Shown here: positions 25,116 through 60,822 of the stretch, in pieces
Layout of the letters: each line of letters opens with the position of its first letter
Numbering within the stretch: the stretch's first letter is position 1
Made by a program: the position numbers and the translations under genes
The notes under the pieces: generated by a model
Seen by the model: only the letters and a program-made list of their open reading frames with translations
Databases searched by the model: none
Told to the model about the DNA's origin: nothing
IMG/VR virus record: IMGVR_UViG_3300028832_000130
Coordinates: 10,780-74,779 of that record
Origin: a virus
Lineage: Duplodnaviria; Caudoviricetes
Length of the DNA: 64,000 nucleotides
Reading direction: 5' to 3' (one strand)

Positions 25116-26843
25116 TTAGACTGCACTGGTGTAGCCGGTGTACTCAACCCAAGCATTGGTAGAGTACTGCCATACTGTACCTGCCTTGTAGGTTACGTCG
25201 GGATCGTCGCCAGAGCCTTCGATGGTGTAGTCCTGTGTCAGAGCAACAATTGTTCCGTCAGCAGGATTGCTTGGAAGCTTGGCAGCAGAAACAACTGCGG
25301 TACGTGAAGCGGTGTCAGGCAGAGAGAAGATGATGTCGCTAGGACCTACGATGATGGAGTTGTAGCCGCGCAATGCGATACAGTCTGCCTCGTAGTGAAT
25401 CTCGCGTTTTGCATCACGGATCTCGCCAGCGCCCTTAGACATGTCGTTGGTGAACTCCTTCTCGCCAATCTTCACATAGCGGGTAGCACCCTCCAGGTCA
25501 AGAACTACGCAAACCTCGTCCATACCGATAGCGTCGAGACCCTGGTCCCAAGTGAAGTCGGTTGTGCCGAAGGTAGTCTTGAGGCGCTTGAAGTCGATAT
25601 CCAGCTCCTTAACGTCCTCCATCTTGATAATGCGCTTGTTGTCGCCCATGTCGAGGTTCAACAACCACTGCATGAAGGTAGAACCGCAGAAAGCGTAAGA
25701 GTGAGAACTCTGTGAGAAGGTGGTGTGCTGCAGCTTAGAGATGGCAATCAAATCGCCAACGGTGATATGGCCACGGTCAATGCTGAACGAGTTGGTTACC
25801 TGCCACAGAATACCCTTAGAACCGTAGGCATCCTCAACAGACTGGTCGCCGTTGATTACCTGAATACGGGTCTTGGCACCCATCCAATAGGTACGTTCTG
25901 CACGGAGGTTGTAGTTGCGGATGGCATTAGCCTTAACGTCGGCAACATGCCAAGGCATCTTCTTCTTAACCTTCTCGAAGTCGTTAGTCCAAACGATGTT
26001 CAACAGCTTCTTCTGAACGCTGAACTCTTCGTAACGAGGCTGATAGTTCTCAGGAGTAATCAGCAACTGGCTCTCGCCTGCGATAGAAGAACCTGCGCAG
26101 AGATAAGCGTTTGCAGGAAGACCCTTGTTTGAGCTTACTCCGTTACCGGCAAACTCACGAACCTCGTAGGTGTCACCAGCAGTAGCACCGTTCTTCAATT
26201 TACCGTTGATAGGAACAACGAGCACATAGCTAGAAGTCACGTCAACGACAAACAGCTCCAGGCAACCCTCTACGGTAGTACCATCCTCTGCGTAACCGTC
26301 AATGAACGGACAGAAAACAGTAGTGCCCTTGTAGAAAGCTTTCAGCGAACCGTTGAAGTTTGATGTGGTCAGCTTCAAGCTACCATCTTCCTCCTGTGTG
26401 ATTGCAGAAGTGGTACGGCCATCCAAGGTGTCACCACCGATACGGGCGTGCTTTACCGTCCAGTTCTGAAGGTTGACTTTGCGTGCGACACGACGCGCAA
26501 TGGAGAGAAGCGGAGTACGCCACGGCTGAAACTGGGTAATCCCCTGATCCCACTCGTCGTCGATGTTGTCTTCTTTACGCTGCTGGGTAGAACTCAGCTG
26601 AGAACCGTTCAAGGTCTCACCGGCAGCACCATCGCCAGGAATGTGCAGGTCGTTATTGGCTGGGTTGGCAGGCTCGTTGGCAGCAGCTTCGGCGGCTGTT
26701 GCGGGCAGAGCGCCCTCGTCACCAATTGGGGCATCATTAACTACGGTAGCGTCTGCCATAGCACCGCCACCACTAACTACGGCAAGGACAAACAGCACAA
26801 AGCTGAGGACTCGCCAAATGTTCACGTTCTTAATTTTCTTCAT
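25116..26843 (-). CDS. Major capsid protein with N-terminal signal-peptide/TM-like segment
   Basis: Follows scaffold-like gene, is followed by a strong hairpin, strongly biased codons; TPLLSIAR, YNLRAERTYWMG; N-term MKKIKNVNIWRVLSFVLFVLAVVSGGGAMA. Confidence 0.75.
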   Translation of the reverse strand: MKKIKNVNIWRVLSFVLFVLAVVSGGGAMADATVVNDAPIGDEGALPATAAEAAANEPANPANNDLHIPGDGAAGETLNGSQLSSTQQRKEDNIDDEWDQGITQFQPWRTPLLSIARRVARKVNLQNWTVKHARIGGDTLDGRTTSAITQEEDGSLKLTTSNFNGSLKAFYKGTTVFCPFIDGYAEDGTTVEGCLELFVVDVTSSYVLVVPINGKLKNGATAGDTYEVREFAGNGVSSNKGLPANAYLCAGSSIAGESQLLITPENYQPRYEEFSVQKKLLNIVWTNDFEKVKKKMPWHVADVKANAIRNYNLRAERTYWMGAKTRIQVINGDQSVEDAYGSKGILWQVTNSFSIDRGHITVGDLIAISKLQHTTFSQSSHSYAFCGSTFMQWLLNLDMGDNKRIIKMEDVKELDIDFKRLKTTFGTTDFTWDQGLDAIGMDEVCVVLDLEGATRYVKIGEKEFTNDMSKGAGEIRDAKREIHYEADCIALRGYNSIIVGPSDIIFSLPDTASRTAVVSAAKLPSNPADGTIVALTQDYTIEGSGDDPDVTYKAGTVWQYSTNAWVEYTGYTSAV

Positions 26844-26871: not shown

Positions 26872-27690
26872 TCAATATCCGTATTTCTTCATTTCGTCGA
26901 AGTCCATAGACATGCTCTTTTTCTTGGGCTTCGGTGTAACGGCCTGGCCTTGTCCCTGACTGAATGAGGGCGGAACCTGTCTCTCGTCAAAGGTCTTTAC
27001 CTTGTTGGCATGTTTCTCGTTACGGGCTCGCATAGCTGCTTCCTCACGGGCATTGGCAATGTCCTGCTCATAGTTCATGGCATGCATGATAGCAGTCCAT
27101 ACGTCCTTGCTGACTTCACCACGCCAAGCGGGCAACCACACCTCATCCCAGAAGTATTCAAACATGCGGTTCTTCTGCTCATCACTAAGACCAAACTCTT
27201 TCTGAACGGCATCCAACTGCTCTACACTACGGGCAATGGCTTCATCCTTGGCGGCTTCGGCAGCTTCGCCGGCAGCCTGCCCCTTTTCCCACTCTGAGAA
27301 AGCGTCGGTGACCTTCTGCAATACATCTGGGTCATCAAGTGCGGCTTTGATATCAATGCCGTTCTTGGCCATCCATACCAACGGGTTCTCTTCCTCATCC
27401 TGCAACATGGCACCAATCCAACGGTGCTTGTTAAGGATGTTTGTCAACTGCTTACCGCTGTTTCTGAGATTTCTCAGCTCCTCACGGTCTCTGCCCATAC
27501 GCTCATAGCGGGCTTCCTTGTCCTCAAAATCTACGTCAGGGTTATCTTCCTTCCACATCGAGGCGTACTTGTCTCGGTTGGGACGTACAGGAACCTCTTG
27601 TACCTGCTCGGCCTCCACTGCTGGCTGGCCGTTCACGTCTACTTCCGTTTTCTTCTTGATTTCTGCCATAAAATTTCGAAATTTTTTCAC
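26872..27690 (-). CDS. Scaffolding-like protein
   Basis: Highly charged, helical, immediately upstream of MCP. Confidence 0.55.
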   Translation of the reverse strand: MKKFRNFMAEIKKKTEVDVNGQPAVEAEQVQEVPVRPNRDKYASMWKEDNPDVDFEDKEARYERMGRDREELRNLRNSGKQLTNILNKHRWIGAMLQDEEENPLVWMAKNGIDIKAALDDPDVLQKVTDAFSEWEKGQAAGEAAEAAKDEAIARSVEQLDAVQKEFGLSDEQKNRMFEYFWDEVWLPAWRGEVSKDVWTAIMHAMNYEQDIANAREEAAMRARNEKHANKVKTFDERQVPPSFSQGQGQAVTPKPKKKSMSMDFDEMKKYGY

Positions 27691-27750: not shown

Positions 27751-27793
27751 TATCGGACACGGAATAAAAAGAGTGGTTTTCGCATATTTTTGC
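27751..27793 (+). promoter_or_regulatory. Late promoter 2 (portal/terminase operon)
   Basis: TATCGGACACGGAA-N20-TATTTTTGC. Confidence 0.7.
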
Positions 27794-27814
27794 GGCATAA
27801 AATACAGAAAACGA

Positions 27815-29800
27815 ATGGCTAAGATAAGAGCTTTATCATCAGTAATGCCTGTAGGGTCTGTGAACGACTCTGTACGCAACCGCAAGCGTAACAGTAGCGT
27901 AAGCAACATCCCTTTTCATCGTCGCCGTAGACAAGACTTAGACCTTATAGCAAGATGCAATCAGGCTTGGAACAACCTAGAAGACGTCCGACTGGTGCGT
28001 GATCGTATTCGTCGCTACACCTACGAAGACCAGTGGGGTGATGTTATTGAGTATCGTCACGGAACGATTACTGAACGCAAATACATTCAGTCGAAGGGTA
28101 ACGTTCCTTTGCAGAACAACATCATGATTTCCATTCTCAACTCTGTAGTGGGCTTGTATGCTAAGCAGAGTGGGGAGCCTAACTGCTTTGCCGTCAAGCA
28201 TGATGGGCAATGGTTATCCGATATGATGACTGCCACCATGCAAACGTCGTGGCAGAAAACATACATGCACGACGCTCTCAAAACGGCTTTTGAGGACTTT
28301 ATCATTGGCGGTGTAGCTGTCTCACGCGAGACTTACGAAGAGCGAAACGGACGCTACGACACTTGGACGGACTTCATCAATCCGAACTATGCTTTCTGGA
28401 TAGGTGGCACAGATGTCCGCATGACTGACTTGCAGATGGTCGGTGTGCTGCATGATGTTGCTCCTGGTCAGTTATACCGTAAGTTCTGCAATAGCCAGTA
28501 TGGTTGGACGGTAGACGAAATCAACAAGATATTCGAAATTGACAGCACAGACAACCATCGCTACTTCCGTTCTACAGGGTTACAACAGAACGAGCGCGAC
28601 CGTCTAGAACAAATCAGCTTTGATACACCATCGGACAACTCAAAGTGCCGACTTATCGAGGTTTGGACGAAAGAGACCAAGACTCGTTACCAGTGTTACG
28701 ACCCGCTGGCAGAGAATGGTGACGAGGTGGAATACCGTATTGAGCTGAATGACAAATGGCGCATTGACCGGGAGAACCAGCTTCGCATACAGCAGTATTT
28801 GCAGGTTGGTATTCCAGAAGATGAATGGGCACTGATAGAAACTGAGAAGATAGAGGATGAATACTGGTACTACACCTTTATGGCTCCTGATGGTACGGTT
28901 ATCGCCGAGGGCGAAAATCCCTACGAGACGAAAGACCATCCGTTTACCATCCGTCTCTATCCTTACGTCAACTCCGAGGTGCACCCGTTCATGGGCAACA
29001 TCATCGACCAGCAGCGCTACATCAACCGTCTTATCATCATGCACGACATGGCGGCACGCTCAGCAGCTAAGGGTCTGACTATTTTCCCAATAGAGAACAT
29101 CCCCGATGGCTATACCAAGCAGGATATAGCAGACGAAATGACTGAGTACGACGGTATTCTGTTCTTTGAGACCAACCGCATGAATCCGAACCTACGCCCG
29201 GAGATTATTTCTTCTGGTGCCGTACAGCTTGGTACACAGGATCTCTTGCAAATGCAGCTTAACCTTTCCCGTGAGATTACCAATGTATCGGGAGCACTAC
29301 AAGGCAAGACGCCTTCTGCTGGTACTTCGGCTGCTCGTTACGCACAAGAGACACAGAACGCTACCACATCGCTTGAATCACTCATGCAGGGCTTCACTTC
29401 GTTTACCGAGCAGATTGCCCGCAAGAAGTGTATGTTCATCAAGCAGTTCTATCGCAATGGTCGTATGGTCTACAACTCCATGCGTCAGCTTATCGACTAC
29501 GACAACCTCTCTTGTCGTGATGTGGACTTTGAAATCAGCATCAAGGAAGCAGCAGCAACAGCAGCCTATCAGACCTATGTCAACGATCAGGCCATGCAAC
29601 TTCTCCAGCTTGGTATCATCGACGGAGAAACATACCTCAACATCTGTAACCTGCCATTCAAGGACGATGCTCTTGCAGCAATTGAACAGCGCAAGGCTCA
29701 ACAGCTTGCCATGCAGCAACAGATGGAACAGCAGCTTGCCGCCAATCCTGCTAACCAGCAACAGGTCGCTAACGCACAACAAATGCTGCAGGCAGCATAA
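27815..29800 (+). CDS. Portal protein (P22-like)
   Basis: YTYEDQW, NNIMISILNSVVG, NIIDQQRYINR, REITNVSGALQG...TSAARYAQE, Q-rich C-terminal barrel; ATG 27815 preferred. Confidence 0.85.
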   Translation: MAKIRALSSVMPVGSVNDSVRNRKRNSSVSNIPFHRRRRQDLDLIARCNQAWNNLEDVRLVRDRIRRYTYEDQWGDVIEYRHGTITERKYIQSKGNVPLQNNIMISILNSVVGLYAKQSGEPNCFAVKHDGQWLSDMMTATMQTSWQKTYMHDALKTAFEDFIIGGVAVSRETYEERNGRYDTWTDFINPNYAFWIGGTDVRMTDLQMVGVLHDVAPGQLYRKFCNSQYGWTVDEINKIFEIDSTDNHRYFRSTGLQQNERDRLEQISFDTPSDNSKCRLIEVWTKETKTRYQCYDPLAENGDEVEYRIELNDKWRIDRENQLRIQQYLQVGIPEDEWALIETEKIEDEYWYYTFMAPDGTVIAEGENPYETKDHPFTIRLYPYVNSEVHPFMGNIIDQQRYINRLIIMHDMAARSAAKGLTIFPIENIPDGYTKQDIADEMTEYDGILFFETNRMNPNLRPEIISSGAVQLGTQDLLQMQLNLSREITNVSGALQGKTPSAGTSAARYAQETQNATTSLESLMQGFTSFTEQIARKKCMFIKQFYRNGRMVYNSMRQLIDYDNLSCRDVDFEISIKEAAATAAYQTYVNDQAMQLLQLGIIDGETYLNICNLPFKDDALAAIEQRKAQQLAMQQQMEQQLAANPANQQQVANAQQMLQAA

Positions 29801-29817: not shown

Positions 29818-30522
29818 ATGACTATCACAATAGCAACAGTTATATCGGCAATTAAGCGCCATCTCTCCATAATCGGAAAGCGGCTCTACACCAAAGACGG
29901 AAAGAATATGTTTTCGGACATCACCCTTTCCTCAGCAGAAGATACGCCCATCCTTACGCAGTACATCAACGCTTCGGTGCAGAATGTTGAGGCGATGTTG
30001 AAGCAGTTTATCACAGCTTCTTCCTATTCTGCATCGGCCATTAACGTAACGATTACTAATACTCGTGGCGACAGCGATTTCCAAAACCGCGTGGCCGACT
30101 TGATAGACTCTTATGTCAGGCTTAACTCCATTGGGGAATATCTCTCTATGGTACACCCTGACCTTGCCAAGAAGTATCAGGACGATGCTTTGCAGCGTAT
30201 GGAGGCACTTGTGGAGTATGTGGTCTACAAGAAACCACCCACAGCACCTACTTATCAATATCCTTCCGAACTGACAGTTTCGGAAAATGCCGTAGATATA
30301 GGGGTCGGGGAGGAATATGACGTGAAGTATAGCATTTCCGAGGGTGCTATTGATGATATTGAAATAGCTGTTGAAGATGCTACGCTCATTGATGCTATGC
30401 GTACTGTGGCTGGGTTTGTCATTAAAGGCAAGCTGTTAGGGCACACTCCTGTTAAGTTGTTCTCTCGCCACAACAAAGAGGTTTCAGCAACCATTCAAGT
30501 TTACGTTACAGACCAATCTTAG
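29818..30522 (+). CDS. Head-tail adaptor-like protein with C-terminal Ig-like domain (paralogue A)
   Basis: Follows portal; C-term IGVGEEYDVKYSISEGAIDDI...LFSRHN. Confidence 0.55.
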   Translation: MTITIATVISAIKRHLSIIGKRLYTKDGKNMFSDITLSSAEDTPILTQYINASVQNVEAMLKQFITASSYSASAINVTITNTRGDSDFQNRVADLIDSYVRLNSIGEYLSMVHPDLAKKYQDDALQRMEALVEYVVYKKPPTAPTYQYPSELTVSENAVDIGVGEEYDVKYSISEGAIDDIEIAVEDATLIDAMRTVAGFVIKGKLLGHTPVKLFSRHNKEVSATIQVYVTDQS

Positions 30523-30527
30523 AAACT

Positions 30528-31280
30528 ATGGATAATACAATACTATTAACGCTCTACAAGCCACAGATTCTTGAATCGGTCAAGAACGAGACATATAAGA
30601 GTGGCCGCTTTGAAAAGGCAGCAGACGCCAAGGCTATATCTACAGCTTATGAGATACAGGCAGGAAATGAAGAATACCAAGAGCGTCTTTTAGAGCGCTC
30701 TTTCAGTACAAGTCTGGAAGAGTTGAAAACGAACCTTTCCGATTACCTGCAGGATAGCGGAGGCTCTACTGGTGACAACATCTATTCCTCGAAGAGTGAA
30801 AGCAATGTCATAATCTCTCTCGTTGTCGGCAACAGATTTAACAAAAGCTATACGGATTCTCTGGCAAAGCTTTGTGCCAAATATGTTGAGGAAGTAATGC
30901 TTGTGGATTGGTGGCGACCCATCAACGAGAAGAAATCATCCCTTTACGCTCAATTCGTAGAACGTGACCTTACCGCTATAAAACGATGCTTCAACAAAAC
31001 TGCTCCCGTAGCACCTTCCTACAAATATCCCACTACGCTCAATGTCGTTGGCTCCGTAATAGCTATAGGTGTTGGCGAAGAGCGTACCGTCACTTACTCA
31101 ATATCGGATGGCGCTATCGACGATATTAACATTCGTGTTCAAGATCCTAATGTGTGTGGTGTCGGTTCTTCAAATGAGGGCGCTACAGTCATTGGAAAGA
31201 ACTTCGGAGAAACTTACATTCAGCTCTATTCTCGTCACAACGAGGAACTGTCTAAGACCATTCAGGTTCGCGTAGTTTAG
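30528..31280 (+). CDS. Head-tail adaptor-like protein with C-terminal Ig-like domain (paralogue B)
   Basis: C-term IGVGEERTVTYSISDGAIDDI...LYSRHN. Confidence 0.55.
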   Translation: MDNTILLTLYKPQILESVKNETYKSGRFEKAADAKAISTAYEIQAGNEEYQERLLERSFSTSLEELKTNLSDYLQDSGGSTGDNIYSSKSESNVIISLVVGNRFNKSYTDSLAKLCAKYVEEVMLVDWWRPINEKKSSLYAQFVERDLTAIKRCFNKTAPVAPSYKYPTTLNVVGSVIAIGVGEERTVTYSISDGAIDDINIRVQDPNVCGVGSSNEGATVIGKNFGETYIQLYSRHNEELSKTIQVRVV

Positions 31281-31303
31281 TTCCTATAATATAAATAAGG
31301 TGT

Positions 31304-31948
31304 ATGGATATACTTCACAACAAAGAACAAGGAGGCTACAGACCCGTTCCGTTGAAAGGGATGCGCCCACCTCTTCCAGATGATAACTGGCCTTATCACA
31401 ATCACCCGTCAACACCACACGACCCTCAGTATGGCATCAAAGACCCCAAGTCAGAACGCCATATCTTCATCAGTCGTGATGCCGTCATGTTTGCGGTAGA
31501 CACGCAGATACAGATGATAGCAGAGTCACGTCGAAAAGACGATGGCCGTGATGATGACCGTCTTACCAATGCCACTACCAAGTATCAGCAGATGTTCTAT
31601 AGTTGGTTCGATACGCATGTGGGAAAGGCAAAGAATAAGATGCAGGCATTTGTGTTGGAAAAGTCAAAGGCTACCAACATGAACACCATAAAAGATAAGG
31701 AAGAGATAGACATCGAACTGTTAATGCCAGAATGGTGGGACGATACCATCTTTGACCAGCTTACCTCAGCGGTTAACGATTATGTCGTTAATGCCATCCT
31801 GCAGGAGTACTTCACCGTCACGCTGACATCTAAAGACCCCGTGACAGTCGATAAGGCAACGCTCGCCATCGATGCTCTTAACGACATTTGCAAGCTGGCA
31901 AATGCCAACAAGCCTGGAACAATCCGTAAACACCTTAGCCCATTTTGA
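31304..31948 (+). CDS. Adaptor-like hypothetical protein
   Basis: Helical; AVNDYVVNAILQEYF resembles the core of the two preceding genes. Confidence 0.5.
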   Translation: MDILHNKEQGGYRPVPLKGMRPPLPDDNWPYHNHPSTPHDPQYGIKDPKSERHIFISRDAVMFAVDTQIQMIAESRRKDDGRDDDRLTNATTKYQQMFYSWFDTHVGKAKNKMQAFVLEKSKATNMNTIKDKEEIDIELLMPEWWDDTIFDQLTSAVNDYVVNAILQEYFTVTLTSKDPVTVDKATLAIDALNDICKLANANKPGTIRKHLSPF

Positions 31949-31969: not shown

Positions 31970-32485
31970 ATGAATATTAGGTACGTTAAGATATTAGTGT
32001 TTTTTATGTTGGTGGGGTCGTATTTCTTTTTACCGAAGTACGGCTTCACTTCTTTTGACGGTTCTTTTTCTGGATACGACATAGCAAACCACTTCCTATA
32101 TCCATTCTCGCATGCCAACATCTGGCACCTCTTGGCAAACATGCTGTGTCTTTTCATGATTCGTTGCAAGATGCACCTCATAGCAACCTATCTGATTGCC
32201 GTGCTGTGCTCATTCCTGCCATCATTCTCTATATACGACTGCGTTATGCAATGTGGTTTTGCTGCTTTGTCTGAACCTACATATGGCTTTAGTGGCATCC
32301 TCTTCGCTATGGTCGGTATCTCTTGGGGTAAGATACATCGTCTTAGGGACATGGTTGCCCGAAACAAGTGGTTCCTTATCATTCCCGCTTTCCTACCTCA
32401 CGTCAACTTCCTCATTCATATATACTGCCTCTTTGCAGGCTACCTATACGGAACATTATGCGCCAAGAAATCCGAGAACTCGTAA
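31970..32485 (+). CDS. Rhomboid-family intramembrane serine protease
   Basis: YPFSHANIWHLLANM (H-x4-H-x3-N), GFSG (catalytic Ser), HIYCLFAG (catalytic His in H-x3-x-x-G); multiple TMs. Confidence 0.88.
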   Translation: MNIRYVKILVFFMLVGSYFFLPKYGFTSFDGSFSGYDIANHFLYPFSHANIWHLLANMLCLFMIRCKMHLIATYLIAVLCSFLPSFSIYDCVMQCGFAALSEPTYGFSGILFAMVGISWGKIHRLRDMVARNKWFLIIPAFLPHVNFLIHIYCLFAGYLYGTLCAKKSENS

Positions 32486-34611
32486 ACGAGAACCACAACC
32501 GCCGCCAGCTTATCTACGGCCCATATGACCAACTCACGGGTATAGGCTGCTACGGTTTTGCAGAAGGTCTTCGCAAGCGCGTAGTCATTCCAGACTGCAT
32601 GATACCAGAAATGTTTGTCATGAAGGAAACCTTAGAGACTGGTATCTTCCATGAGGTGTTGCGCTTCGGCACTATTCGCAGGTTTATTGAAGAGGGCTGT
32701 CACAGAGACTATGATGCTGACTACCATCAGGACGTAGAAGAGGCATTGTTCCAAGCTCGTTGTGCTGACGATCCGGAGTTTGCATTTATCATTACTGACA
32801 AGATTGTGGATAAGGTGTCTGGCAAGATGATACCTTTCACCCTTCGCTATGCCCAGCGAGTACTCTTGAAGGTGTTTGAAGAGCGCAGACGTGCTGGTAA
32901 GGCTATCCTTGTTGTATTGTTGAAGGCTCGTCAGTGGGGTGGTTCTACGCTTACACAGATGTATATGAAGTGGATGCAGGGCTATCGCCACCCGAATGGA
33001 TGGAACGCCGCTATCGTCACGCAGGCAGACTCTACCTCTAAGAAGATTAAGGCTATGTACCGCAAATCTTTGGAGGTTCAGCCCGGATGGACGATTGGTA
33101 TGCCTGGTGCCAAACTGGAAATGACACGCTACGAGAACTCTGACTCTGACTTTCAGATATCCGATGGAAAATTCCTTGTCCGTTCTTCCATTCTCTCTAT
33201 TGCATCGTTCAACTCCTTTGAGAAGTGTCGTGGTGACAACTACAAGCTGGCACACTTCTCTGAGGTGGCATCGTGGAAGAAGACTCCCGAACACGACCCT
33301 GACGAGGTGCGCGCCAATATCCAAGGTGGTTTCTTAAATCTGCCCGACGAGATGGCGGTCTATGAGTCTACGGGTAAGGGTAACTCTGGCTTCTTCTACG
33401 ACTTGTGTCAGGACGCTATGGCCGAAAACTCCACCTCTGCCTACTCCTTTGTGTTCATTCCTTTCTTCCTCATTGAGCAGGACATGAAACCCATGTGGCA
33501 CAATGGCTTTACAGAGAAGGAGGAAGAAGAGTTTGCAGAATGGCTGTGGGCTAACCGCAACAAGGACAGTGAGGTGCCTGGATTCCGTGAGTCGGGCAAG
33601 TTTTTCTGGAAGATATGGAAGATGGGCGCTTGCTTTGAGGCTATCAACTGGTATCGCTATAAGCGTAACGAGCACAAGACGCATGGTTATATGGCTTCTG
33701 AGGCTCCCATCGACCCCGTTGAGGCTTTCCGTAATTCTGGTAACGCAGTCTTTGACCCATACTCCATCGACGACCTCAAAGACGACTGTCAGGCACCAAA
33801 GAAGCCGATGTACTATGCCGATGTGGTACTTAAACCCTTCGAGAAACGTTCTCGTGCTGTCTATCTGGATGCAAAGGTTGTTGTTCGCGAGGACAACCAA
33901 GGCGAGTTAAAGGTTTGGTCTGCCCCCAACAACCACATCTTCAAGGTCAAGAACCGCTACCTTGTCTCAGTCGATATTGGTGGTGCTTCCGACAAGGCTG
34001 ACTATACGGTAATGACTGTCATTGACCAGATGGGATTGTGTAAGGAGGTCAAAGGCCGTCCCCGTGTGGTAGCCCGTTGGCGAGGCCATGTCCGTCACGA
34101 TATTCTTGCATGGAAAGCTGCTGCCTTGGCTCACTACTACGACGATGCTCTGCTGATTATCGAGAGTAACACGGCAGACCGAGAGAAAGATACCAATACC
34201 GAGGGCGACCACTTCGGAACCATCATCAACGAGATTTCTAAGTTCTACCCCAATCTCTATCAGCGCAACAAGACTCCCGAAAGCGTGCAAGAGGGTATCG
34301 AACCCATCTACGGTTTCCAGACCAACGTCAAGACCAAGCAGTGGATAATAGACAACCTTATTGCTTGCGTTGACGATAAGCTGTGGGAAGAACCAGACGA
34401 GCAGATGTATATGGAGTTGGGATGGTATGAGCGCGACCCCGATACAGGCAAGATGGGCAACCAGCCAGGCTCTAACCGTCACGACGACGTGCTCATGTCT
34501 ACTGCCATTGGTCTCTATGTAGCCTACAACAACGACATCTACCGTCCTTCATGGCGCACAGAAGCACCCAAGGAGAAGAAACAACGCATTCACACAGAAG
34601 CAGAAATATAA
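32458..34611 (+). CDS. terL: Terminase large subunit
   Basis: LKARQWGGST Walker A; AHFSEVA Walker B; YESTGKG; VSVDIGG and HDDVLMS nuclease motifs; ATG 32458 preferred. Confidence 0.92.
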   Translation: MRQEIRELVNENHNRRQLIYGPYDQLTGIGCYGFAEGLRKRVVIPDCMIPEMFVMKETLETGIFHEVLRFGTIRRFIEEGCHRDYDADYHQDVEEALFQARCADDPEFAFIITDKIVDKVSGKMIPFTLRYAQRVLLKVFEERRRAGKAILVVLLKARQWGGSTLTQMYMKWMQGYRHPNGWNAAIVTQADSTSKKIKAMYRKSLEVQPGWTIGMPGAKLEMTRYENSDSDFQISDGKFLVRSSILSIASFNSFEKCRGDNYKLAHFSEVASWKKTPEHDPDEVRANIQGGFLNLPDEMAVYESTGKGNSGFFYDLCQDAMAENSTSAYSFVFIPFFLIEQDMKPMWHNGFTEKEEEEFAEWLWANRNKDSEVPGFRESGKFFWKIWKMGACFEAINWYRYKRNEHKTHGYMASEAPIDPVEAFRNSGNAVFDPYSIDDLKDDCQAPKKPMYYADVVLKPFEKRSRAVYLDAKVVVREDNQGELKVWSAPNNHIFKVKNRYLVSVDIGGASDKADYTVMTVIDQMGLCKEVKGRPRVVARWRGHVRHDILAWKAAALAHYYDDALLIIESNTADREKDTNTEGDHFGTIINEISKFYPNLYQRNKTPESVQEGIEPIYGFQTNVKTKQWIIDNLIACVDDKLWEEPDEQMYMELGWYERDPDTGKMGNQPGSNRHDDVLMSTAIGLYVAYNNDIYRPSWRTEAPKEKKQRIHTEAEI

Positions 34612-37392: not shown

Positions 37393-37746
37393 TTAGTCAT
37401 CTTCTGACCGCTTTAATGGTAAAGGTTCCTGTACTATTTCTTCGTAGGGCACATAAGTGCCGTTATCGGGTAGCGAGACCCTGGAGCGCACCAACGCCTG
37501 CAGATCGTCGCGGTCTTTCTGTCTGTTGATGTTGATATTGATGTTCGTGTTCTTCTCAATACCCAACTTCACGGCCTCCATATACAGCTTCACCCACTGA
37601 ACGGGAGCACCTTCTTTTATCAGCTTCATCGTCTCTTCAAACTGCTGGAAGTTGTTCTCCGTCCAGTTGGCCATCATGCCCTGCACAGTATCGGCAAGCT
37701 TGACTACTGCACCCCTGTTCCTTCTGACATCTTTTCCAACATCCAT
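37393..37746 (-). CDS. Hypothetical protein (terminase small subunit candidate)
   Basis: Small helical protein, NININI C-terminal strand; only positional support. Confidence 0.4.
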   Translation of the reverse strand: MDVGKDVRRNRGAVVKLADTVQGMMANWTENNFQQFEETMKLIKEGAPVQWVKLYMEAVKLGIEKNTNINININRQKDRDDLQALVRSRVSLPDNGTYVPYEEIVQEPLPLKRSEDD

Positions 37747-38252
37747 TTCATTTTCTCCTTTCTCTCTTTTCTTTCTTTAGTCCGCTTGCGGTTATTCTCA
37801 CGGGTGTTAACGTATGAGGGTAGTTTTTCGTCTCTTACCTTGCCGTCTTCATCAAATACACCGTTACGGATAAAACCTCTTATAATACTTGCTCTTACGG
37901 GGCTGATAAAGAACTTTGGAGCTGGTTGCATAACGGCAAACTTCATGATGTAACTAAGGCTCTTGCCTATAAATTCCCGCTTTTCAGATAACTCTTGCAC
38001 CACCTTGAATAGCGAGTAGTACATTTCGCGACGTAGTGGCATCATCAAATCTATCCTTCTAAAGTTCCCCCTTATCATCGCAGCAATATTCTGGCTGGCT
38101 TGCCTTGGTGTGACATAGTAACGTGGCGCAGGTTCGTTGACCATGCGCTCGTAAGCCTGATGCTGCGACCAGCACTCGCCACATACGCGCTTATAAGCAG
38201 CGATGAGGTCTTGATGCATCTGTTTCGATATGTCATAGTTTACTTTGCTCAT
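37704..38252 (-). CDS. Hypothetical basic protein with two PAP(R/K)(Y/F)(Y/F) repeats
   Basis: EPAPRYYVTP and QPAPKFFISP; start MSKVNY (38252) follows TAAATTTG -7 element at 38257-38265. Confidence 0.7.
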   Translation of the reverse strand: MSKVNYDISKQMHQDLIAAYKRVCGECWSQHQAYERMVNEPAPRYYVTPRQASQNIAAMIRGNFRRIDLMMPLRREMYYSLFKVVQELSEKREFIGKSLSYIMKFAVMQPAPKFFISPVRASIIRGFIRNGVFDEDGKVRDEKLPSYVNTRENNRKRTKERKERKEKMKWMLEKMSEGTGVQ

Positions 38253-38369
38253 GCCTGCAAATTTACGGAAAATCTTCCGTTTATGAAGATTTTTCGCTTC
38301 CATGCTATTAATGATTGCCAATGATTATCAAAGATTATAATCCGTTTCCGACTTTCTTTCATTGTGTAG

Positions 38370-42934: not shown

Positions 42935-45900
42935 TTATTCGATGTCTTGCGTCTTGTCAAGCTCTTCTACGACCATCTGTAGTGTACTGTTGTAGAGTGC
43001 TCTTGCGTTCTTTCGCTTTCTGCCTTCTGCTTGGTTGGCTGCGGTATTCAGTTGCTTCAACGTCTTTTCTGCCTCTCTTACCATTTCCATGCGTACAAAG
43101 TCCTTGCCCTTTGCTTCTTCCATGTACTTCATGAGGTGTTCAGGATTGCTGCCCATATCGGCTTCGTACCCCTTTATATTGTGATACTTCTCGTTTGCCT
43201 CTTCGCGATACTTACGATACTTAGCCTTGATACGGTACAGGTCTGTGCGCTCGTCGCCCTGCTGCCAGAAGGCGCGGAAGAACTCTATCTTTCGCATGTT
43301 AAAGTCAGCCTCATCATCGGTGAACGCCCATTTATAGGCATCTCCTACGGCAGAGCCAGTGTTCATAAAGAACTTGCCTGGGCCACCAGTATATTGCTCT
43401 AACAGATATTGCATGCTGCTTGGGTTTATCTGTGCCCATCCGCGCTTCACATCGTCACCTCCACTTATATCGTTAAGCCACTTTGACAATGAAATATAAG
43501 CGGAGTTGGTGTTGCCAAGAGTCATCTGGTATTCTGGTGTCCATTCGTCACCTGGGTAGCGGTCTTCCCTAAAGATAGGTTTGCCCGTCCAGCCCAAGTT
43601 CTCGCCTACAGCCACCAATGGAGCTACTGGTGAGCAAATTCTTCCTGCGAATTCTGCTACAGGATTGAACTCGTTGGTAATCTTCGTCTCAAAGTCAACG
43701 GGTGAGAATACGTTTAGGAATCCTATAACTTCGTCATACAACGTCTTGTCAATGGGTTTTAGCTTCGGGAATAATGTGATACCTGCTATCATGTCACCCA
43801 TAGAGTAGAACGCTGCCAGCTCCTGACCCATTGGGATAACAAGGAAGTCGTTCTTTCCACAACCAGGAATCCATCCAGTATAGATACACAAGTTCTTTCT
43901 GCGCACCCACTCTGGCAGGTTTGCATACGGATCGTCGTCGCCATCGCCTCCAGCAAGAGCATAGAGTGCTGCATTGAGTACAGGCATCAGCATGCCCATA
44001 GCGAAAGGTGGTGCTGCATATCGCGTGAGAAGTCTCCCTGCGTACTTATAGTTGATAGAGCCATCTGGATTCTTCAAGCCTCGGAAGATGTTACAGATAG
44101 CCTGCACGGTGGCATTAAAGAACATCTTATTTGCCATCAGTATCTGCGAAGCCTCTCCAGCAATCTTGGCTGCTCTAGTAACACTCTTTTTGTCGCTCTT
44201 GAAGCTTGCCGTCTTTCTGCCTGCCCCCTTCTTGTTAAAGTTTACAGTTACTTCCTTAGCGTCGTAAGCAGAGCGGGCCTTGGTGCGGCCTGCATAGTGA
44301 CGGGATGCGCGGTAGGTAGCAAAGCGAGCATTGTTCTCAATGGCCTCATTCATTGCCTCTACAGCACCAAGTGTCTTATCGAAGAAACTATTTGTCAACT
44401 TCTTTACCTTGCCAGGAGTGCTTAGCATGCCTTCCATCTCCTTCTGCAGTTCTGCCACCTTCTTCATGTGAACAAACCCTGTTATACCACCATTGTCCAT
44501 GAAGTCTTTGAAGTCGCGCTCCATTTCTTTGCTCTCGTCAAGGGTGCCAGCACGATACTTCTTGAACAATGAAATCATGTGTGGCAACTGCTGTCTGTAG
44601 TATTTCTGGGCTTCTGACTCATAGTCCATGCCTTCACGTGCCGCGAGAATGGCACCGAAGTGAGTCCAGTCACGGAGCATATTTCTTCCGAGGAACGTAA
44701 TGTTGTATGATGTGCTAACGGTCTGCTGGAACTGTTTGAGGCTGGCAACCATCTTGTTTACTGTTCCCTTTCCTGACTCATAGCGTAGCTCTCCATTGAT
44801 AGCTTGCGCCATGCGTGGGTTGCCCATTACTATCATGGTCTTGCGCTGTCCGTTAATTATCACTTCGACGATGTGCTCTCTCATGCGCTTCTTATCAACC
44901 TTGTAGTCGAATTTAGCCTTGCTATTCAGTCGCTTTGCCTCGCCTCTGGCTTCCAGTTCTGCCATGCGGGTATTAAAGTCGCTGACAGCCTGCTCAACCT
45001 CCTGCGGGGTCATGTCTGAATCAATGCGTGGGAAATCAACTATAAAGTCTCCCGTTGTCGGGTCAAGCACAGCCCATGTGTCTTGTATCTTTACAAGGTC
45101 GTTTTCGTGTGCCTGACACAGGCGGTAGAAGTGTTGCTTCACCACATTCTGATTACCGTCAGAGATAGCTTTATAGGTCATGGCGAACAAGGTTGAAAGC
45201 GGATAGTTGGCTTTGCTCTTACGACCCTTGGCATTTCTCAACAGACCTCCCACACTGTTTTTATTGTTGGATTCTGTCATATACTGCCAGTGGTCTTGTG
45301 CTGCCTCTCCCTCATTGAATCCTCGCATAGGAACGTAGAAGTGGAACATGTTCTTTATGCGGTCGTGAACCGACTCAGACAACATGCCGCAGTCTCTGTA
45401 CTTATCCAATCCAAGGTTTGAACACAAGTTTATCTGCTCCCAGAGCCTGTTACGCAACTCATCGCCCATCTTCTCTTCCTGTTTTTGCAGTTTGCTGAGA
45501 ATGTCGGCCTCGCTATAGTTACCTTTCTCGTCACCATACATATCTGTAAAGCCTGAGTAGTCATGCTTCTCTGCATTATAGCGCTTGTTGATGTTGGACT
45601 TGATGAAGTCATCCATTTCCTCTATATACTGAGCAAATGAAATCTCTCCATCCTTCAACTTCTGATAGTTCTCGTTATTCATTGCAGCAAAGTCCTTCTC
45701 CATCTCGTCGAGAAGTTCTTTTTCATCATCTTCCAATTCTTTGCTGCGCTGAGCCTTTAGCCAATCTCTTACATAGAGCACTCGGTTGCGCTCAAAGCCA
45801 TGCTTGGTGAAAAGATAGCGGTCAACATCACCCGTCTGCCATCCCATCTTTTCGCATAGCTGTAATACGGTTCCTTCAAGTGGTCTACGGTAGATATTGG

Positions 45901-48900
45901 TAAACTGCTCCTGCTCTGTGAATGTCTTGCCATAAGAAAGGTTCATGGCCTGATAAGCGTTCTGAGAGTCGGGTATTTCCTCATCGTGGGCAATAGCCTC
46001 CTGACCCTTCTTGAATGTTATCATGTCGTCCTGACCAGCTTCCGTAACTACGGTTTCTGCACGGTCAATACGCTCATGATATACTTCCTTTGCAGAGTAT
46101 TCGCCCATTTCACGAACACCCTCTACCTTTTCTTTGCGCTCTTTCTTCCAGCGTTTTGCTGAAAGCTCAATGGCTTTGAGTGGGTCTACTACTTCTTGTA
46201 GTTCGGGTTCCTCTTCAGAGCGTACGACGTTATCTCCCCGTTCTCGTCCCTGTTGATTACTTCTACGAACCTGGGTTGCTGGTGCCTGTCGATTTTCGCC
46301 AAGTCGTCCAAGCTGATTGTTCCTTTCTTCTTTTCTTCCATTTTGTATATAATTGGTTAGTTCTCCTGCAAAGTTACGGATTTCTTGTCTATTATCCAAG
46401 AACTCGTTCATAAATTTTTCAGTACCGATATTTGCTACCACCACATTACCGATAAGGAAAGAGCAAGCTTCTTCCAGTCTTTCTTCCTTTTCGTATGCAT
46501 TTCTGATGTGCATATAGATGTCTGGGCGATTGGCTTTCAGCCAGTCATAGCAGGCTTGCCCGTATCTGTTACGAGCATCTGCCGGCATGCGCTGCCAATA
46601 GCCATGTACTTGTTCGTGCCACCACGCTTCTTCTGCTTCTCTGATGTCACGAAGTTTCTCCCCAAACACTACAACAACATCACCCTTGGGGAAATATCCG
46701 GATGCGGTATCAGGCTCGTTGTAAAGTTCCTCAATCTCGTTATAGACATCATCACCTACCTGTCCCTTCAAAGCCTCCAAGTCAGCGCGGCTGTTAACGA
46801 CATAAGTAGGCACGCCACCATTAACTCCAAAACGACTTGAAATACTGTCTACGAAGTCTTTTATATCGTCTAATAGAGAAATCTGACGCTCCTGTCTCCA
46901 ACTATCTGCTGCCTGTTCAATGGCTTCCAACGGATTGTTGGTAGTAATCATGCGCTTGGGAGATTCCTCTTCCTTATGCTCTTCGGCAACTGTTACGCCT
47001 AGCTCGTCGAGACGTTTCATGACGGCATCGAGATTGCTGCGCTTGAACTCGGCCTTCATCTTACTGCTGCCTTCAAACTGACCGTCCATCAGAGAAAGGA
47101 GGGTTTCGTCGTTGTAGTACTTAGCTCCCTTCTTAGCAGACTTAGGCACAGTCAACTCCAAGGTGTCATAGCTGTGGGTGTTCCAGTTCCAATCATTGGT
47201 AACACGGATTGACACGTCACCATCTGCACTCTCTACCTTGTCGCGGTTGTACTTCAATTCGTCCTTCTTGGCAGAGATTGGCGTCTTACTGGTAAGTCCC
47301 TTCGGTTCGAAGTTGTCTGGCATCAAGATACCCTGACGCACTTCGCCTGTATCGGTAGTAAACGAAATCAGCTTACCGCCTACACCCTGCTCACGGGTAG
47401 ATACAAGAGCTTTCAGCAGATTACCGGTAATGATATAACCATCCTTGCGGGCTGCAGTAGATGTCAGCTTATCCCAATTATCCGTGTTCTGTTCCAACAC
47501 TTTCAGCGTATTGGCAATATTCTGTCCGAACCAACCGCCTCTCGCCTGTGCGGTAAGAGAATTGATGGTGGGGAATATCTGTTCCTTCTCGCCCTTCTGC
47601 TGCTTTACCTTGCCATTGATAGGGATAGTAATCTTACGACGGCCATCAAGCGTAGCAAACGATATGGTGCTGGCATTGGGTGACATGTTATCACTAATCT
47701 TAATGTCAATCAGCTTACCAAATCCAGGCTCAAAGGTCATACTTCCGAGGTCGTAGATGTTGCTAGGCAAAGCATAGACACCATCCGTAGTGAAGGTTTC
47801 AAGAGCATCGACAAACACCTGTTTCTGTGCTTCGATAGCGGCAAGTGCATCGTCAAGCTTCTTAATCTCTTCCTTGTACATGTTCTCATACTGTATCTGA
47901 CCGTTGCGTTCTATCTCTTCGTCGGTCATTTCGTTCTTCTCCTGAGCTTTCTTGGCACCCTTAACATAACGTTCCTGTTCGGCTGCTGCCTTCTTCTTTG
48001 CTCTCTCGGTAATGGTCTCTGTGGTTTCGGCTTTCTTCTTCTCCGCCCACTCGTCAACCTTAGCAAGCGTTTCTTGCTTGTATTCATCCCATGTCTTACC
48101 ACCAAGAAGACGCTCCTGCGAAGCTTTCACCTCACTGGCTTTCATCGGCTTGCGTAGAACATCCATGTTGACTTTCTCTACGTAGGTATTGTCAGCAAAT
48201 GGGTTGTTACTATCCGGATCAATACCTTGCTCCCAAACTTGCTTGCTCAAAGTCTTGGCTTTCAACGGCATTTCGGTAATCTCCAAGTCGTTTTCGCCCA
48301 TTTCGTTCAGTCGGTCTATCTCAGTCTGATAGAGGTCGCTGATTTCTTTAAGCATCTTCTCCTGGTCTGCAACCTTCAAGAGCGCCATGCGACCAAGTAC
48401 TTTGCTTGCGGTTTTTCCTGCTTCACCTTCCTTTGATGCAGAAGCAACCAACTCTTCTGACGGCTTTATCTGCCAGTCATCTCCCCATTTCAAAGGATTT
48501 AGCAGCTTTTCTGCAAGGTCTACGTGTTCTGCGAGATACTGAGTAACGATGTCGTCACCATACTTATTAATGATGTCTTGTACCTGCATTTCGTTGAACT
48601 TCGACTTCTGAGAAGATGTAGTGTTGGCATCCAAAGAGCGAAGCTTTGCTTTCAACATCATCAATAGGCGTTGCTCTGATGGGATAGTAGAAACAATATA
48701 GGTATATCTACTATGTTGCTTCTGTCCTGTTCGATCTGTGCGGCCACGCATCTGCACTTCGTCGTTAATGTCACTCTGTGGCTGAACGACAATCATGTGA
48801 CGCTGGTCTGTGTTTAGGAACTTAATGCCTGCATGAAGGTCAATGCCCGTGCCTGCGCTCTTGTTCATGATAACAGCGTCTACAATGCCACTGTTGAAGT

Positions 48901-51900
48901 CGGAAGCGTTCTTCTTGTTGTCGGTGTCAGTGCGGTTGACGCGCTTAACAGTACCGTCTTCGTTATATATAAACTCCTTTTTTCGTCCTGTGAGTTCGGC
49001 TATGCTGTAGCCTGCCTTGCGTATATAATTCTTAATCACATCAATCGGCGACAGACTCAGACCTGTAGACGAGTTAGCTATAGCTTCCTCGATTTCATGA
49101 TATCTACGCTGACCTTCTTCAGAAAGCCTACTTACAGGTATAGAGGTATAAGTGTCATTGTTGTTGGCATCTGTTTTCTTGATTTTCAGAGTGCTTTCCA
49201 AACCCTCGTGCAAACTCGTGGAAAGGTCAGGCATTGTCATGTCTTCGTCGGAATTCGCCGTTGCTCTGTCTGCTGCACCTTCGTTTGTGTTTTCTACACA
49301 GATAACGGGCTTCTCTCCGTTCTTTAGACACTCTACTGCGAACTTAGCACCTTCTTCTGCCTTTAAAGAGAGCAACACTTTTTTGACAATCTGATGGGTC
49401 TGGCTGGCAAATGGAGTGTTGTTAATACCCATATCTCGTGTACCAGGAGTGTGGTTTACTTCTCCCTGATCTTCTGCAGCATCATCGTTCATCTTGTCAA
49501 TGATGGGGTCAACATAGGTACGCTGAAACTGAATGATGTCATTAAAGAGGCCAATAATCTTGTCGTATTGTTCGTAATGCTTCTTTATGACATCTTCATC
49601 CTCAATGCCCTTCCAGTCTACCGTTACACCAGTCATGTTGCGCTCACGACGTATCATCTGACCTGCTTCTGTCAGAGCCTTAGACATTATCTCTTGGAAC
49701 GTAGCACCACCACGTTTAACGGCATCTATCAACTCGCTAACGGCAACACCTGCCTTACTGATTGCTGTGCGCAGCGAATAAAGAGGCATGTTGTCAGGAC
49801 GCTTAGCAAATGTAGCACTTATATATGTGATGCCTCCTGCTTTAGTAGAAACATATTGCAAGTAGTTTCCTCTTGCACTTTCTCCACCAGCCAAATGGCT
49901 TTCGTCCATTAAGACAATACTATTTCCTGCAAGATTCTCAATTGCATCACGCTTTGCTTGTCCGTTGACATCTGCTTTTGTGGCGGTCTTGTTCTTTCCG
50001 TAACTTCGAGCTTTCTTATTGCCGTTCTCATACTCCATAGTACCGTTTCCTACTTGACTATAGGTGGTAATCATGAAGTCGTACTCAGGCGGCAATTTGC
50101 CATTCTTGTTTATATATTCAAGAACTCGCTTCTGCTCTTTGTCGCTTGGCAGGTCAAAAAGTACTTCGTCTTTGCCGTCTTTTCTTTCTGTAATACGGGC
50201 CTTTATCTTGTCAGAGGCAAGGATAAACGGACGCAAACCATCGCTGTGGATATCCTTTATATCACGGTAAACGCTGGAGAAAAGCTCTGGCTTTGCTGTG
50301 AAATATACAGGGGCCTTGCCATTCTTGACAGCCCAACGGATTAATGCTGCACCCTGTCTGCCTTTACCTATACCGGTTTGGTCGCCGATGATAAAGGCAT
50401 CCCCCTTCTTCATTTGGTGGATAGCAAGTGCTACAGAATCAATCTGCTCTGCTGCTAGTGCTTGATACAGCTCTTCCTTGCTACTATAACCTAGTTCTTC
50501 AACAAGGAACTTATCTACGTCCCCTATAGCTTCAAGCGCTTTCTTTACAACGTCAGCCTGCTCTGCTGGCATCTGAGATTGTAAGTCAAACGGATTTGTA
50601 CTTTGTTTGCGATAAGGAACTTTTTCTGCTCCCAATTCGCGCTTTTGCTCGGGTTGTTTTACTGATAGTCCGGCTCCGCTATCCACAGCGTCTCCAGGAA
50701 GTCGCTGAGAGTTGCTTCCTCCGACAGCCACTTCTCCTGTTCCGTTTTCGCTGGATACAGTTTGGCTCCCTCTTGATTGCTCAGATTGATTCCCGCGTCC
50801 GTGAAGAAGTACAGGTCGTGTGCCCATTCCTCCATTTGTTTCTGGCTGGGCATTTCCTCCCCCTCCTTCGGCTTTGGCGCTTGCATCGCTCCGCTGTACA
50901 TCGACGACAGGCTCAGTTGATAGTTGATGTTCTCCTGAGCTTCTTCCGTCCCGCACATTTCGTACTCCCTTTTCATTAGAAGAACTAACATGTCCATTAT
51001 CAGATAGTCCTCCATTCTGTCCGCTTTCTGCGGTGTGAACACTAGAGGATGTATCTCCGTCGTGTTCCTTGTTACGTAATATGTCATCGTTTACTCGTTT
51101 AAATAATTCATCGTATGTCTTAACCTGCTCGGCACGTGCCTTGTCACGTACAGGAGCATATACTGTCGGGTCGTACTTAGGCTTGCGTCCGTTAATGAGA
51201 ATCATTCTGACGGGATAGCCAGTGCCCTGCTTAGTGTAAAGCGCCTTACCGTCCATGTTGATAACGTCGACTACGTTGTAGGCTTGGTACAGATAATTTA
51301 GGAATTGTCTGTCTTTTCCCTGTACGGCACCATTGCGCTTATACTCTGTGTTACCGCCAATGATGATAGCTGCACGGCCATCGTCCTTCATTGCATCGAG
51401 GGCATTGAGTGCCATTTGCTGTTCAAGTGACGAAATCTCATATACTCCCCATTCCTTTGGTAATACGCTGCCGAATGGTGGATTAGTGACGATAACATCG
51501 TACTTCTTCTTGCCAAACGACTTTGTACCGTCTTGACTGGTAACCTCACCAAATCCCTGCTTCTGTAAGTTGGAGAGTCGCATTTCATCAATGTCGTTGA
51601 CGTGCATTATCTCCTTTGGCAGATTGATAGTCAGCATACCGTTGCCGGCTGATGGTTCCAAACCACTCTTAGCCTTTTTCTGCGGGTCTACGAACTTGCC
51701 CATCAAGAACGCCATCGGTGCAGGAGTAGAGTACTGCTGCTTGTTGATGCGGTCATTGTCTCTTGCGCTTAACGTAGGCTGCCATTCATAGAGGTGCTTG
51801 ATATGTTCAAACTTCTGTTCATCATTCAAAGCTTCTGTATTGGCAATGTCTCTTGCGACGTTGACAATCTCTGCCTCTACCAACTCCTGCAGGTCAGTCA

Positions 51901-59843: not shown

Positions 59844-60323
59844 TTATTTCTTCTTTATATTATTATCCTTGTCAAGGTAGTATTTGTCATAGCCAAGAAA
59901 CATATTTGCCTCGGCAATACGACGTCTCTTCAAGCCTACTAGCGGTTTACCTCCTGCATTGACCCATTTCACTATCTGGTCGGTGATTTCTTCGTCAGGA
60001 TCATCTGCAACAATCTTCTTCAATAAGGTAGAATTCCTAAAAGCACCCTCGCCAAGATTGAAATTCCACGAAACCAAGGCATCAAAGCACTCTTGTCTGA
60101 AATTGATACCCAGCTTGTTCAGCGTGCGCTCAATAGGCGCAATATCCTCTATCAGCAAGTCCTCTGCACGCATCTTGTCTATCACCTCGTTAGGCTTTAC
60201 ACATTTCGTATGCCCGTAACCTATAGTAAGAACTCCTGCAGGGCACTTGTAAGACTCTAGGCGAAGACCTTCAAAGTCCTTGATAAGCTGTAAGCCATTG
60301 CGGCTCGTCGTCATCTTCTTCAT
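59844..60323 (-). CDS. Endolysin, GH24 lysozyme
   Basis: IKDFEGLRLESYKCPAGVLTIGYGHT; FDALVSWNFNLG; GLKRRRIAE. Confidence 0.93.
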   Translation of the reverse strand: MKKMTTSRNGLQLIKDFEGLRLESYKCPAGVLTIGYGHTKCVKPNEVIDKMRAEDLLIEDIAPIERTLNKLGINFRQECFDALVSWNFNLGEGAFRNSTLLKKIVADDPDEEITDQIVKWVNAGGKPLVGLKRRRIAEANMFLGYDKYYLDKDNNIKKK

Positions 60324-60329
60324 AACTCC

Positions 60330-60818: not shown

Positions 60819-60822
60819 AACA

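Follow-up and report, generated by a model that had tools for sequence, protein, structure and literature searches.

A rhomboid protease gene upstream of terL

We analysed a 64,000-nucleotide stretch of a tailed virus genome (hereafter the window; bases 10780-74779 of the 74,779-bp IMG/VR record IMGVR_UViG_3300028832_000130, CheckV completeness 100%) in which an open reading frame (ORF) at 31970-32485 on the plus strand encodes a rhomboid intramembrane serine protease of 171 residues with six predicted transmembrane (TM) helices. The ORF matched the Pfam family Rhomboid (PF01694) with an E-value of 2.2e-9 and 38.1 bits, the gathering score being 22.6, and a six-frame search of the whole genome with the same model returned this one match only (38.3 bits). 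The phage is podovirus-like and, judging by its relatives, its host is most likely a member of the Bacteroidales; its closest isolated relatives are the temperate Bacteroides phages BF1-TP2, BKO1-TP3 and BS-TP4. A database search recovered a homologue family of at least 156 clusters (145-195 residues, 50-83% identity), all of them metagenomic and several from contigs of 70-75 kb.

The residues expected of a rhomboid were highly conserved. Across 120 homologues, H48, H53, N57, G106, S108, G109 (119/120), H150 and G157 were invariant or nearly so, and H48, H53, G106, S108 and H150 were invariant in 19 distant phage rhomboids of only 21-64% identity. The catalytic serine, Ser108 (codon 32291-32293, plus strand), lies at the start of TM4 within the GxSG motif G106-F-S108-G109, was present in 120/120 close and 19/19 distant homologues, and aligned with S201 of GlpG. 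The catalytic histidine, His150 (codon 32417-32419, plus strand), lies in TM6 and was present in 118 of the 120 close homologues, the remaining two having gaps at this position, and in 19/19 distant ones. It is followed by small residues in an AHxxGxxxG-like helix, of which G157 is invariant in the close family and the first glycine is replaced by Cys153 in the window rhomboid. The HxxxN motif of TM2 is represented by H53-L-L-A-N57 (32126-32140, plus strand), whose H53 and N57 were invariant in the 120 homologues and aligned with H150 and N154 of GlpG. The asparagine of this motif was replaced by cysteine in 2/19 distant phage rhomboids (L041/L050; HLFLCC and HLLLCC), both of which kept the serine and the histidine.

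Structural comparison also placed the protein in the superfamily. An AlphaFold2 model of the rhomboid (mean predicted local distance difference test score, pLDDT, 74.6) was aligned to GlpG by VIA-align with a Z-score of 9.8 and a root-mean-square deviation of 3.8 Å over 134 residues, spanning model residues 3-168. A total of 27 GlpG entries scored Z ≥8.0, whereas the best unrelated chain scored Z 5.1, in keeping with a GlpG-like fold of six TM helices. Foldseek by itself gave a weak match that was not significant (E 0.35), the family profile reached GlpG among the PDB sequences at an E-value of 0.16 only, and a phmmer search of the PDB sequences with the rhomboid sequence returned no match.

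The lysine and arginine residues of the rhomboid cluster in the N-terminal tail, the TM2-TM3 loop, the TM4-TM5 loop and the C-terminal tail. By the positive-inside rule this distribution indicates that both termini are cytoplasmic (N-in/C-in) in the host inner membrane, as in GlpG, and the Ser108/His150 site is predicted to lie in the periplasmic leaflet. Loop L1 is short and the WR motif was not found in it, A39 and N40 being aligned with W136 and R137 of GlpG in columns that are variable in the family. The missing motif bears on membership of the GlpG/AarA subgroup with a canonical L1, not on membership of the superfamily. The only NCBIfam model with any match was that of the rhombosortases (TIGR03902), at 18.8 bits against a cut-off of 84. 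We conclude that the protein is a genuine minimal rhomboid of its own phage-specific type and, from the conservation of its catalytic residues, that it is probably active.

The rhomboid gene is locked to that of the large terminase subunit, terL (32458-34611, plus strand), which was identified by tblastn through matches of 35-39% identity to genes of Bacteroides phages noted as Terminase_6C, and through matches to genes annotated as terL in other phages. Its ATG, at 32458, precedes the end of the rhomboid stop codon at 32485, so that the two genes overlap by 28 bp. The gene directly 5' of the rhomboid (31304-31948, plus strand; 214 residues) is separated from it by 21 nt, and this order is kept in the close relatives; the gene is a paralogue of the two that precede it and matches phrog_19255, as does 30528-31280. 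No Bacteroides-type TTTG..TAnnTTTG, sigma-70-type or other recognisable promoter was found just 5' of the rhomboid, and the gene therefore appears to be co-transcribed with those preceding it. The rhomboid is translationally coupled to terL and, if co-transcribed with the head genes as it appears to be, would be made late and in enzyme-like amounts. A prior sequence-only reading of this DNA had described an intact rhomboid with a GFSG serine and a TM histidine, a 28-bp overlap with terL and a late promoter ("late promoter 2") over the gene; the exact ORF, its catalytic residues and fold, and the overlap were all confirmed, and the promoter was not.

The rhomboid was directly 5' of terL in all close relatives (L006-L011), in L012, a relative of 38% identity whose gene order differs, and in the Bacteroides phages and their metagenomic kin. 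Approximately 16 more lineages had the rhomboid directly 5' of terL, usually in the layout terL, rhomboid and a gene of ~130-145 residues in one direction and scaffold and capsid protein in the other. In all, every relative with a rhomboid that was examined had this adjacency, the three isolated Bacteroides phages and genomes in which the portal and other genes have moved among them. Since it persists where the terL proteins are only 30-39% identical, the function of the rhomboid appears to be tied to the head and packaging module, and the gene does not behave as a passing accessory gene.

The major capsid protein and its leader

The gene at 25116-26843 on the minus strand encodes a 575-residue protein which we assign as the major capsid protein. 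Searches with it by tblastn against 50,697 phage records, and against Pfam and NCBIfam, gave no match, and the assignment thus comes from its HK97 fold: a model with a pLDDT of 79.9 matched, by Foldseek, the VP1 capsid (E 2.4e-19), the crAss001 capsid protein (1.9e-13) and HK97 (7.9e-7). The protein begins with the sequence MKKIKNVNIWRVLSFVLFVLAVVSGGGAMA|DA, followed by ~60 acidic, disordered residues free of lysine and arginine, and this disordered linker extends to about residue 95.

The first 30 residues (26754-26843, minus strand) form a conserved leader with the layout MKKIKNVNIWR / VLSFVLFVLAVV / SGGGAMA|D, i.e., a basic n-region, a hydrophobic h-region and a c-region of small residues. 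Read directly from the sequence, this is the layout of a Sec/signal peptidase I signal peptide, and that of the relatives is similar. The glutamine at +1 that is characteristic of Bacteroidetes was generally lacking: +1 was D, A, V, E or T, and only one of ~20 leader types listed had glutamine after its last small residue (A-Q). Most Bacteroidetes substrates of signal peptidase I expose glutamine (PMC5837995, PMC10653852). The same kind of leader was found on capsid proteins of only 22-25% identity, and a profile search with the capsid body alone against 1.84 billion representatives recovered 748 capsid relatives, of whose best 150 most opened with such a leader. Among the phages and prophages of Bacteroidales, HK97-fold capsid proteins with a secretion-type leader are widespread, being present in 85/153 unique lineages (L022-L181).

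The methionine at the leader junction aligns with the initiator methionine of leaderless capsid homologues. The context of the upstream ATG was rich in A/T (A 0.45, AT 0.75), resembling that of the leaderless starts (0.39 and 0.78), whereas that of the internal methionine was not (A 0.15, AT 0.44). As the Bacteroidetes-type initiation context is found at the upstream ATG only, we take the long form of the capsid protein to be the main product. Initiation at the junction methionine, yielding a short cytoplasmic capsid protein, was considered as the main route and rejected for lack of this context, although a minor short isoform is possible.

The gene directly 5' of the capsid gene (26872-27690, minus strand) encodes a 272-residue protein of charged, helical sequence that matched phrog_22323 (E 1.5e-16), and each of the six clade genomes compared had a gene of this kind beside that of the capsid protein. 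Its position and composition point to a putative scaffold. When the complete 74,779-bp genome was searched in six frames for the protease families Peptidase_S78, Peptidase_S77, CLP_protease and Peptidase_S49, no match was obtained at E-values up to 1, which extends to the complete genome the earlier statement that the window holds no classical prohead protease.

The capsid leader as a candidate substrate

These findings led us to consider that the rhomboid may clip a membrane-inserted virion protein made by the phage itself. The best single candidate for its substrate is the leader at the N-terminus of the capsid protein that the phage itself encodes, to which we assign a probability of roughly 35%. 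If so, the leader, with its MKK start, hydrophobic stretch of ~15 residues and GGGAMA end, would terminate at the leaflet that holds the rhomboid active site, and a cut near the Met-Ala junction would leave a capsid N-terminus matching the start of the leaderless homologues. The rhomboid would then be the membrane-bound counterpart of a prohead protease, in phages descended from ancestors that bore the leader already and would otherwise have relied on host enzymes. More tentatively, we speculate that the leader delivers capsid subunits to the inner membrane and that the rhomboid, made together with the terminase, releases them, in a membrane-coupled maturation that would replace the prohead protease.

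Several observations favor the leader as the substrate. In the neighbourhoods listed, hydrophobic segments were a consistent feature of only two head-module proteins, the capsid protein and the rhomboid. The leader would thus be the only membrane-targeted product of that module, and it ends in small, helix-breaking residues, which agrees with the earlier description of a capsid TM segment rich in such residues. The lack of the glutamine typical of Bacteroidetes signal peptidase substrates can be counted for processing by a rhomboid. In addition, with the long form as the main capsid product, the leader has to be dealt with in some manner.

Both the distribution of the two features and the properties of the leader weigh against this proposal. 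The distribution was studied in three groups. The first consisted of 40 viral records with capsid proteins 26-53% identical to the query set; all 40 had a hydrophobic leader, and a rhomboid was identified in 27 by Pfam and in one more by the profile of its own family, adjoining terL, mostly directly upstream, wherever its position could be read. The rhomboid was missing from L023-25, L028, L046/47/61 and L056 despite a complete terL-capsid interval, and from L043, a record that is 93% complete. The second group comprised 80 prophage loci in Bacteroidales genomes, with about half of the capsid proteins leader-bearing and half leaderless, and no rhomboid was found within 10 kb at any of the 80. 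Among 40 host genomes with leader-positive prophages, 38 had no phage-type rhomboid anywhere; in the other two it was part of a different prophage, located on another contig, in which it was linked to terL. Each of the 40 Bacteroidales host genomes that were searched (G080-G119) carries exactly two rhomboids of its own, which scored ≤43 bits on the phage profile as compared to 104-117 bits for the phage-type rhomboids. The two host genes form a tandem pair, encode ~250-320 residues each and are distinct from the phage type. In the third group, 39 records with distant, leaderless capsid homologues, a rhomboid was found in 0/39.

A capsid tree was built from 153 unique capsid bodies, comprising 33 with rhomboid and leader, 52 with the leader only and 68 with neither. 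The leader was present in 33/33 rhomboid-positive lineages, and thus the presence of a rhomboid implied that of a leader without exception in our sample. The reverse implication failed, as 52 of the 85 leader-bearing lineages had no phage rhomboid. Approximately 3 changes of state were counted on the tree for the rhomboid and ~12 gains or losses for the leader, and phylogenetically independent contrasts on the same tree detected no joint change of the two. One acquisition of the rhomboid, within a clade that already bore the leader, could account for the association. A systematic difference in Met-Ala, hydrophobic length or -3 residue between the leaders of rhomboid-positive and rhomboid-negative phages was also considered, and was dropped as the differences were not clean.

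With regard to the leader itself, a break rich in glycine and aspartate followed by Met-Ala was also seen in the leaders of rhomboid-less phages, and these features are consequently not specific to the rhomboid. Most leaders obey the -3/-1 rule of signal peptidase I. In addition, the charges of the leader predict an N-in/C-out orientation, that of a signal peptide or type II protein, whereas rhomboids prefer type I and type III substrates (PMC7232013). With an N-in/C-out leader, the region after it would have to cross the membrane and the capsid body would come to lie on the wrong side, which is difficult to square with capsid assembly in the cytoplasm. The separate scaffold would also make a maturation protease unnecessary, and the absence of a prohead protease would then be normal. 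Phages of the P22 and T7 types, which have a separate scaffold, assemble without a maturation protease.

The sequence-only reading had hypothesized that the rhomboid and a TM-anchored capsid protein form a maturation pair, with the caveat that the capsid charges predict N-in topology. Its premises were right, its caveat stands, and the leader did accompany every rhomboid lineage; yet the outcome that it had itself named as refuting, that phages with such capsid proteins commonly lack the rhomboid, was observed in the many leader-bearing lineages and host genomes without it, and no correlated gain or loss was seen. A maturation pair is possible, and the case for it goes back to one old co-inheritance event. 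The rhomboid is a long-conserved component of the head and packaging module of these phages, and comparative genomics does not establish its pairing with the capsid protein.

Alternative substrates and roles

Foremost among the alternatives, although unlikely in our estimation, is that the rhomboid targets host inner-membrane proteins, to take over the cell, counter its defences or exclude superinfecting phages, with the late operon no more than its carrier. Processing or degradation of host membrane proteins is established for bacterial rhomboids (PMC7232013, PMC7231995), apparent moron rhomboid genes are present in the unrelated Stenotrophomonas phages DLP3 and DLP5, the different scores of the phage and host rhomboids on the phage profile suggest different specificity, and no phage substrate was found to co-vary with the rhomboid. 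Conversely, the position of the window rhomboid has remained fixed and coupled to terL through rearrangement and divergence, which is unusual for accessory or moron genes, and its late expression would be ill-timed for host takeover. Accessory and moron genes tend toward module borders and turn over quickly.

Next in our ranking, and likewise improbable, comes processing of another phage membrane protein, which the rhomboid would trim or release much as AarA does TatA. The best candidate is the 235-residue product of 61613-62320 (minus strand), identified by a TM scan and family alignment, in which a TM segment rich in Gly, Ala and Ser (residues ~24-41) is followed by a basic flank and then a coiled coil; it probably belongs to the internal or ejection proteins. 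Its family belongs to the core of the clade, having been found in 5/6 compared genomes with the sixth only partly fetched, and its TM segment consists of helix-destabilising small residues in a glycine-zipper-like arrangement. In the relatives, the flank on the N-terminal side is acidic or absent and that on the C-terminal side is rich in lysine and arginine, which predicts the N-out/C-in (type III) orientation that rhomboids prefer (PMC7232013), although the flanking charges are ambiguous in the window's own protein. The window phage and some relatives also have an extension of 15-23 residues before the TM segment that precedes an internal Met-Gly matching the start of the other homologues, and which resembles the pre-sequence of TatA (PMC3712462). 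As with the capsid leader, however, the distribution is unhelpful, since the family was found in 21/36 related records including the rhomboid-less G007, G026 and G035, and its N-termini are alike whether or not the phage has a rhomboid; the gene is also ~29 kb from the rhomboid. We regard this protein as a credible rival that is no better supported than the capsid leader. The family match in G027, G014, G008 and G009 contains in-frame stop codons (TAA, TGA, TAG).

The classical n-h-c layout of the capsid leader, with a small -1 residue and mostly acceptable -3 residues, raises a further prospect that we rank lower again: host signal peptidase I or host rhomboids may remove the leader, leaving the phage rhomboid to clear leader peptides or to perform late membrane quality control. 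Leader-bearing phages without a rhomboid must depend on host enzymes, the two rhomboids of all 40 host genomes searched would be at hand, and hundreds of capsid subunits per virion would likely load the membrane with leader peptides. Yet cutting by signal peptidase needs the region after the leader to be translocated, which would be senseless for a cytoplasmic capsid protein; the leaders also lack the glutamine exposed by most Bacteroidetes substrates of that enzyme (PMC5837995), and a released signal peptide has the type II orientation that rhomboids do not prefer. Finally, it is very improbable that the rhomboid times lysis by cleaving a holin, an antiholin or a membrane-tethered lysis factor. 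The rhomboid is expressed late and the genome does have multi-TM holin-like genes beside its endolysin (59844-61239, minus strand), but this cassette is 28 kb away on the opposite strand, and in all relatives the rhomboid is linked to terL and not to the lysis genes.

Comparison with known systems

The window rhomboid resembles GlpG of Escherichia coli and Haemophilus influenzae (MEROPS S54) in its core of six TM helices, TM4 GxSG serine, TM6 histidine, TM2 HxxxN motif and predicted N-in/C-in orientation. It differs from GlpG in being only ~16% identical, in lacking a cytoplasmic N-domain, in its short L1 without WR, and in being phage-encoded in an operon with terL. A working model for both phage candidate substrates is AarA of Providencia stuartii, a dedicated rhomboid that cuts a short N-terminal piece off the abundant, small-residue-rich membrane anchor TatA and thereby activates it (PMC3712462, PMC2941825). 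AarA differs in having seven TM helices, TatA is N-out/C-in whereas the phage capsid leader is predicted to be N-in, and the genes of AarA and TatA are not in a virion module. The rhombosortase/GlyGly-CTERM system (PMC3237569) likewise combines a short rhomboid with a glycine-rich sorting signal next to a TM segment, but its signal is C-terminal on exported proteins, whereas the candidate signals of the window phage are N-terminal.

The prohead proteases of HK97 (gp4, S78) and T4 (gp21, S77), and the ClpP-like ones (S14/S49), have the role proposed here for the rhomboid, removal of the N-terminus of an HK97-fold capsid protein. They differ in that they are soluble enzymes of unrelated fold which are packaged within the prohead. 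In T4, proheads too are built on the inner membrane, and they detach from it once cleavage has occurred.

True homologues of the window rhomboid, at 24-29% identity and in the same place before terL, are gp59 of BF1-TP2, gp50 of BKO1-TP3 and gp8 of BS-TP4. These are known from annotation alone, the paper describing the phages making no mention of a rhomboid. Some labels in the GenBank records of these phages (PQ571263, PQ571269 and PQ571277) appear to be wrong, as terL is labelled "tail spike protein" and the BKO1-TP3 gp50 rhomboid "glycoside hydrolase". The rhomboid genes of DLP3 and DLP5, unlike that of the window, are placed among accessory genes. In our literature searches, we came across no account of a phage rhomboid that acts in capsid assembly, nor of an HK97 capsid protein that carries a signal peptide.

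Very few bacterial rhomboids have a known physiological substrate. In a large group of gut Bacteroidales phages the rhomboid is locked in the operon for the head and packaging, so that only a handful of phage proteins need be considered as its substrate, and BF1-TP2, BKO1-TP3 and BS-TP4, whose hosts can be cultured, allow a direct test. If the capsid leader is indeed the substrate, the assembly of tailed phages would gain a membrane step of a new kind; to our knowledge, membrane-coupled capsid maturation by an intramembrane protease is unknown for any tailed phage. Regardless of the substrate, the widespread secretion-type capsid leaders and the long-conserved phage rhomboid beside terL need explanation.

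Other features of the genome

The six clade genomes that were compared share a core consisting of a giant protein, terL, portal, capsid protein, scaffold, adaptor, a 911-residue protein, the rhomboid, a ~140-residue protein and the 61613-62320 family. The 911-residue protein, which the window genome also encodes, resembles internal virion proteins. The giant protein is the product of a 5178-residue ORF (42935-58471, minus strand) with homologues of ~2000-5500 residues in all six genomes, that of BKO1-TP3 being annotated as "DarB-like"; the ORF belongs to the clade's core genes and not to the accessory ones.

The portal protein is P22-like (27773-29800, plus strand; PF16510, E 2e-20; phrog_156, E 9e-50). 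Between it and the rhomboid is a row of three paralogous genes (29818-31948, plus strand) encoding 234, 250 and 214 residues and matching phrog_35482/19255. The first two have Ig-like C-terminal parts, and the number of paralogues varies among relatives. The gene of ~130-145 residues that lies directly 5' of the rhomboid in most relatives has been relocated in the window genome, where the portal and the three paralogues now precede the rhomboid, whose junction with terL has stayed intact. Clustering, alignment and gene order identified its homologue as 37704-38321 (minus strand), which encodes a 205-residue protein with a duplicated PAPR(Y/F)Y-x-T/S-P motif, and this family may be the small terminase or a regulator.

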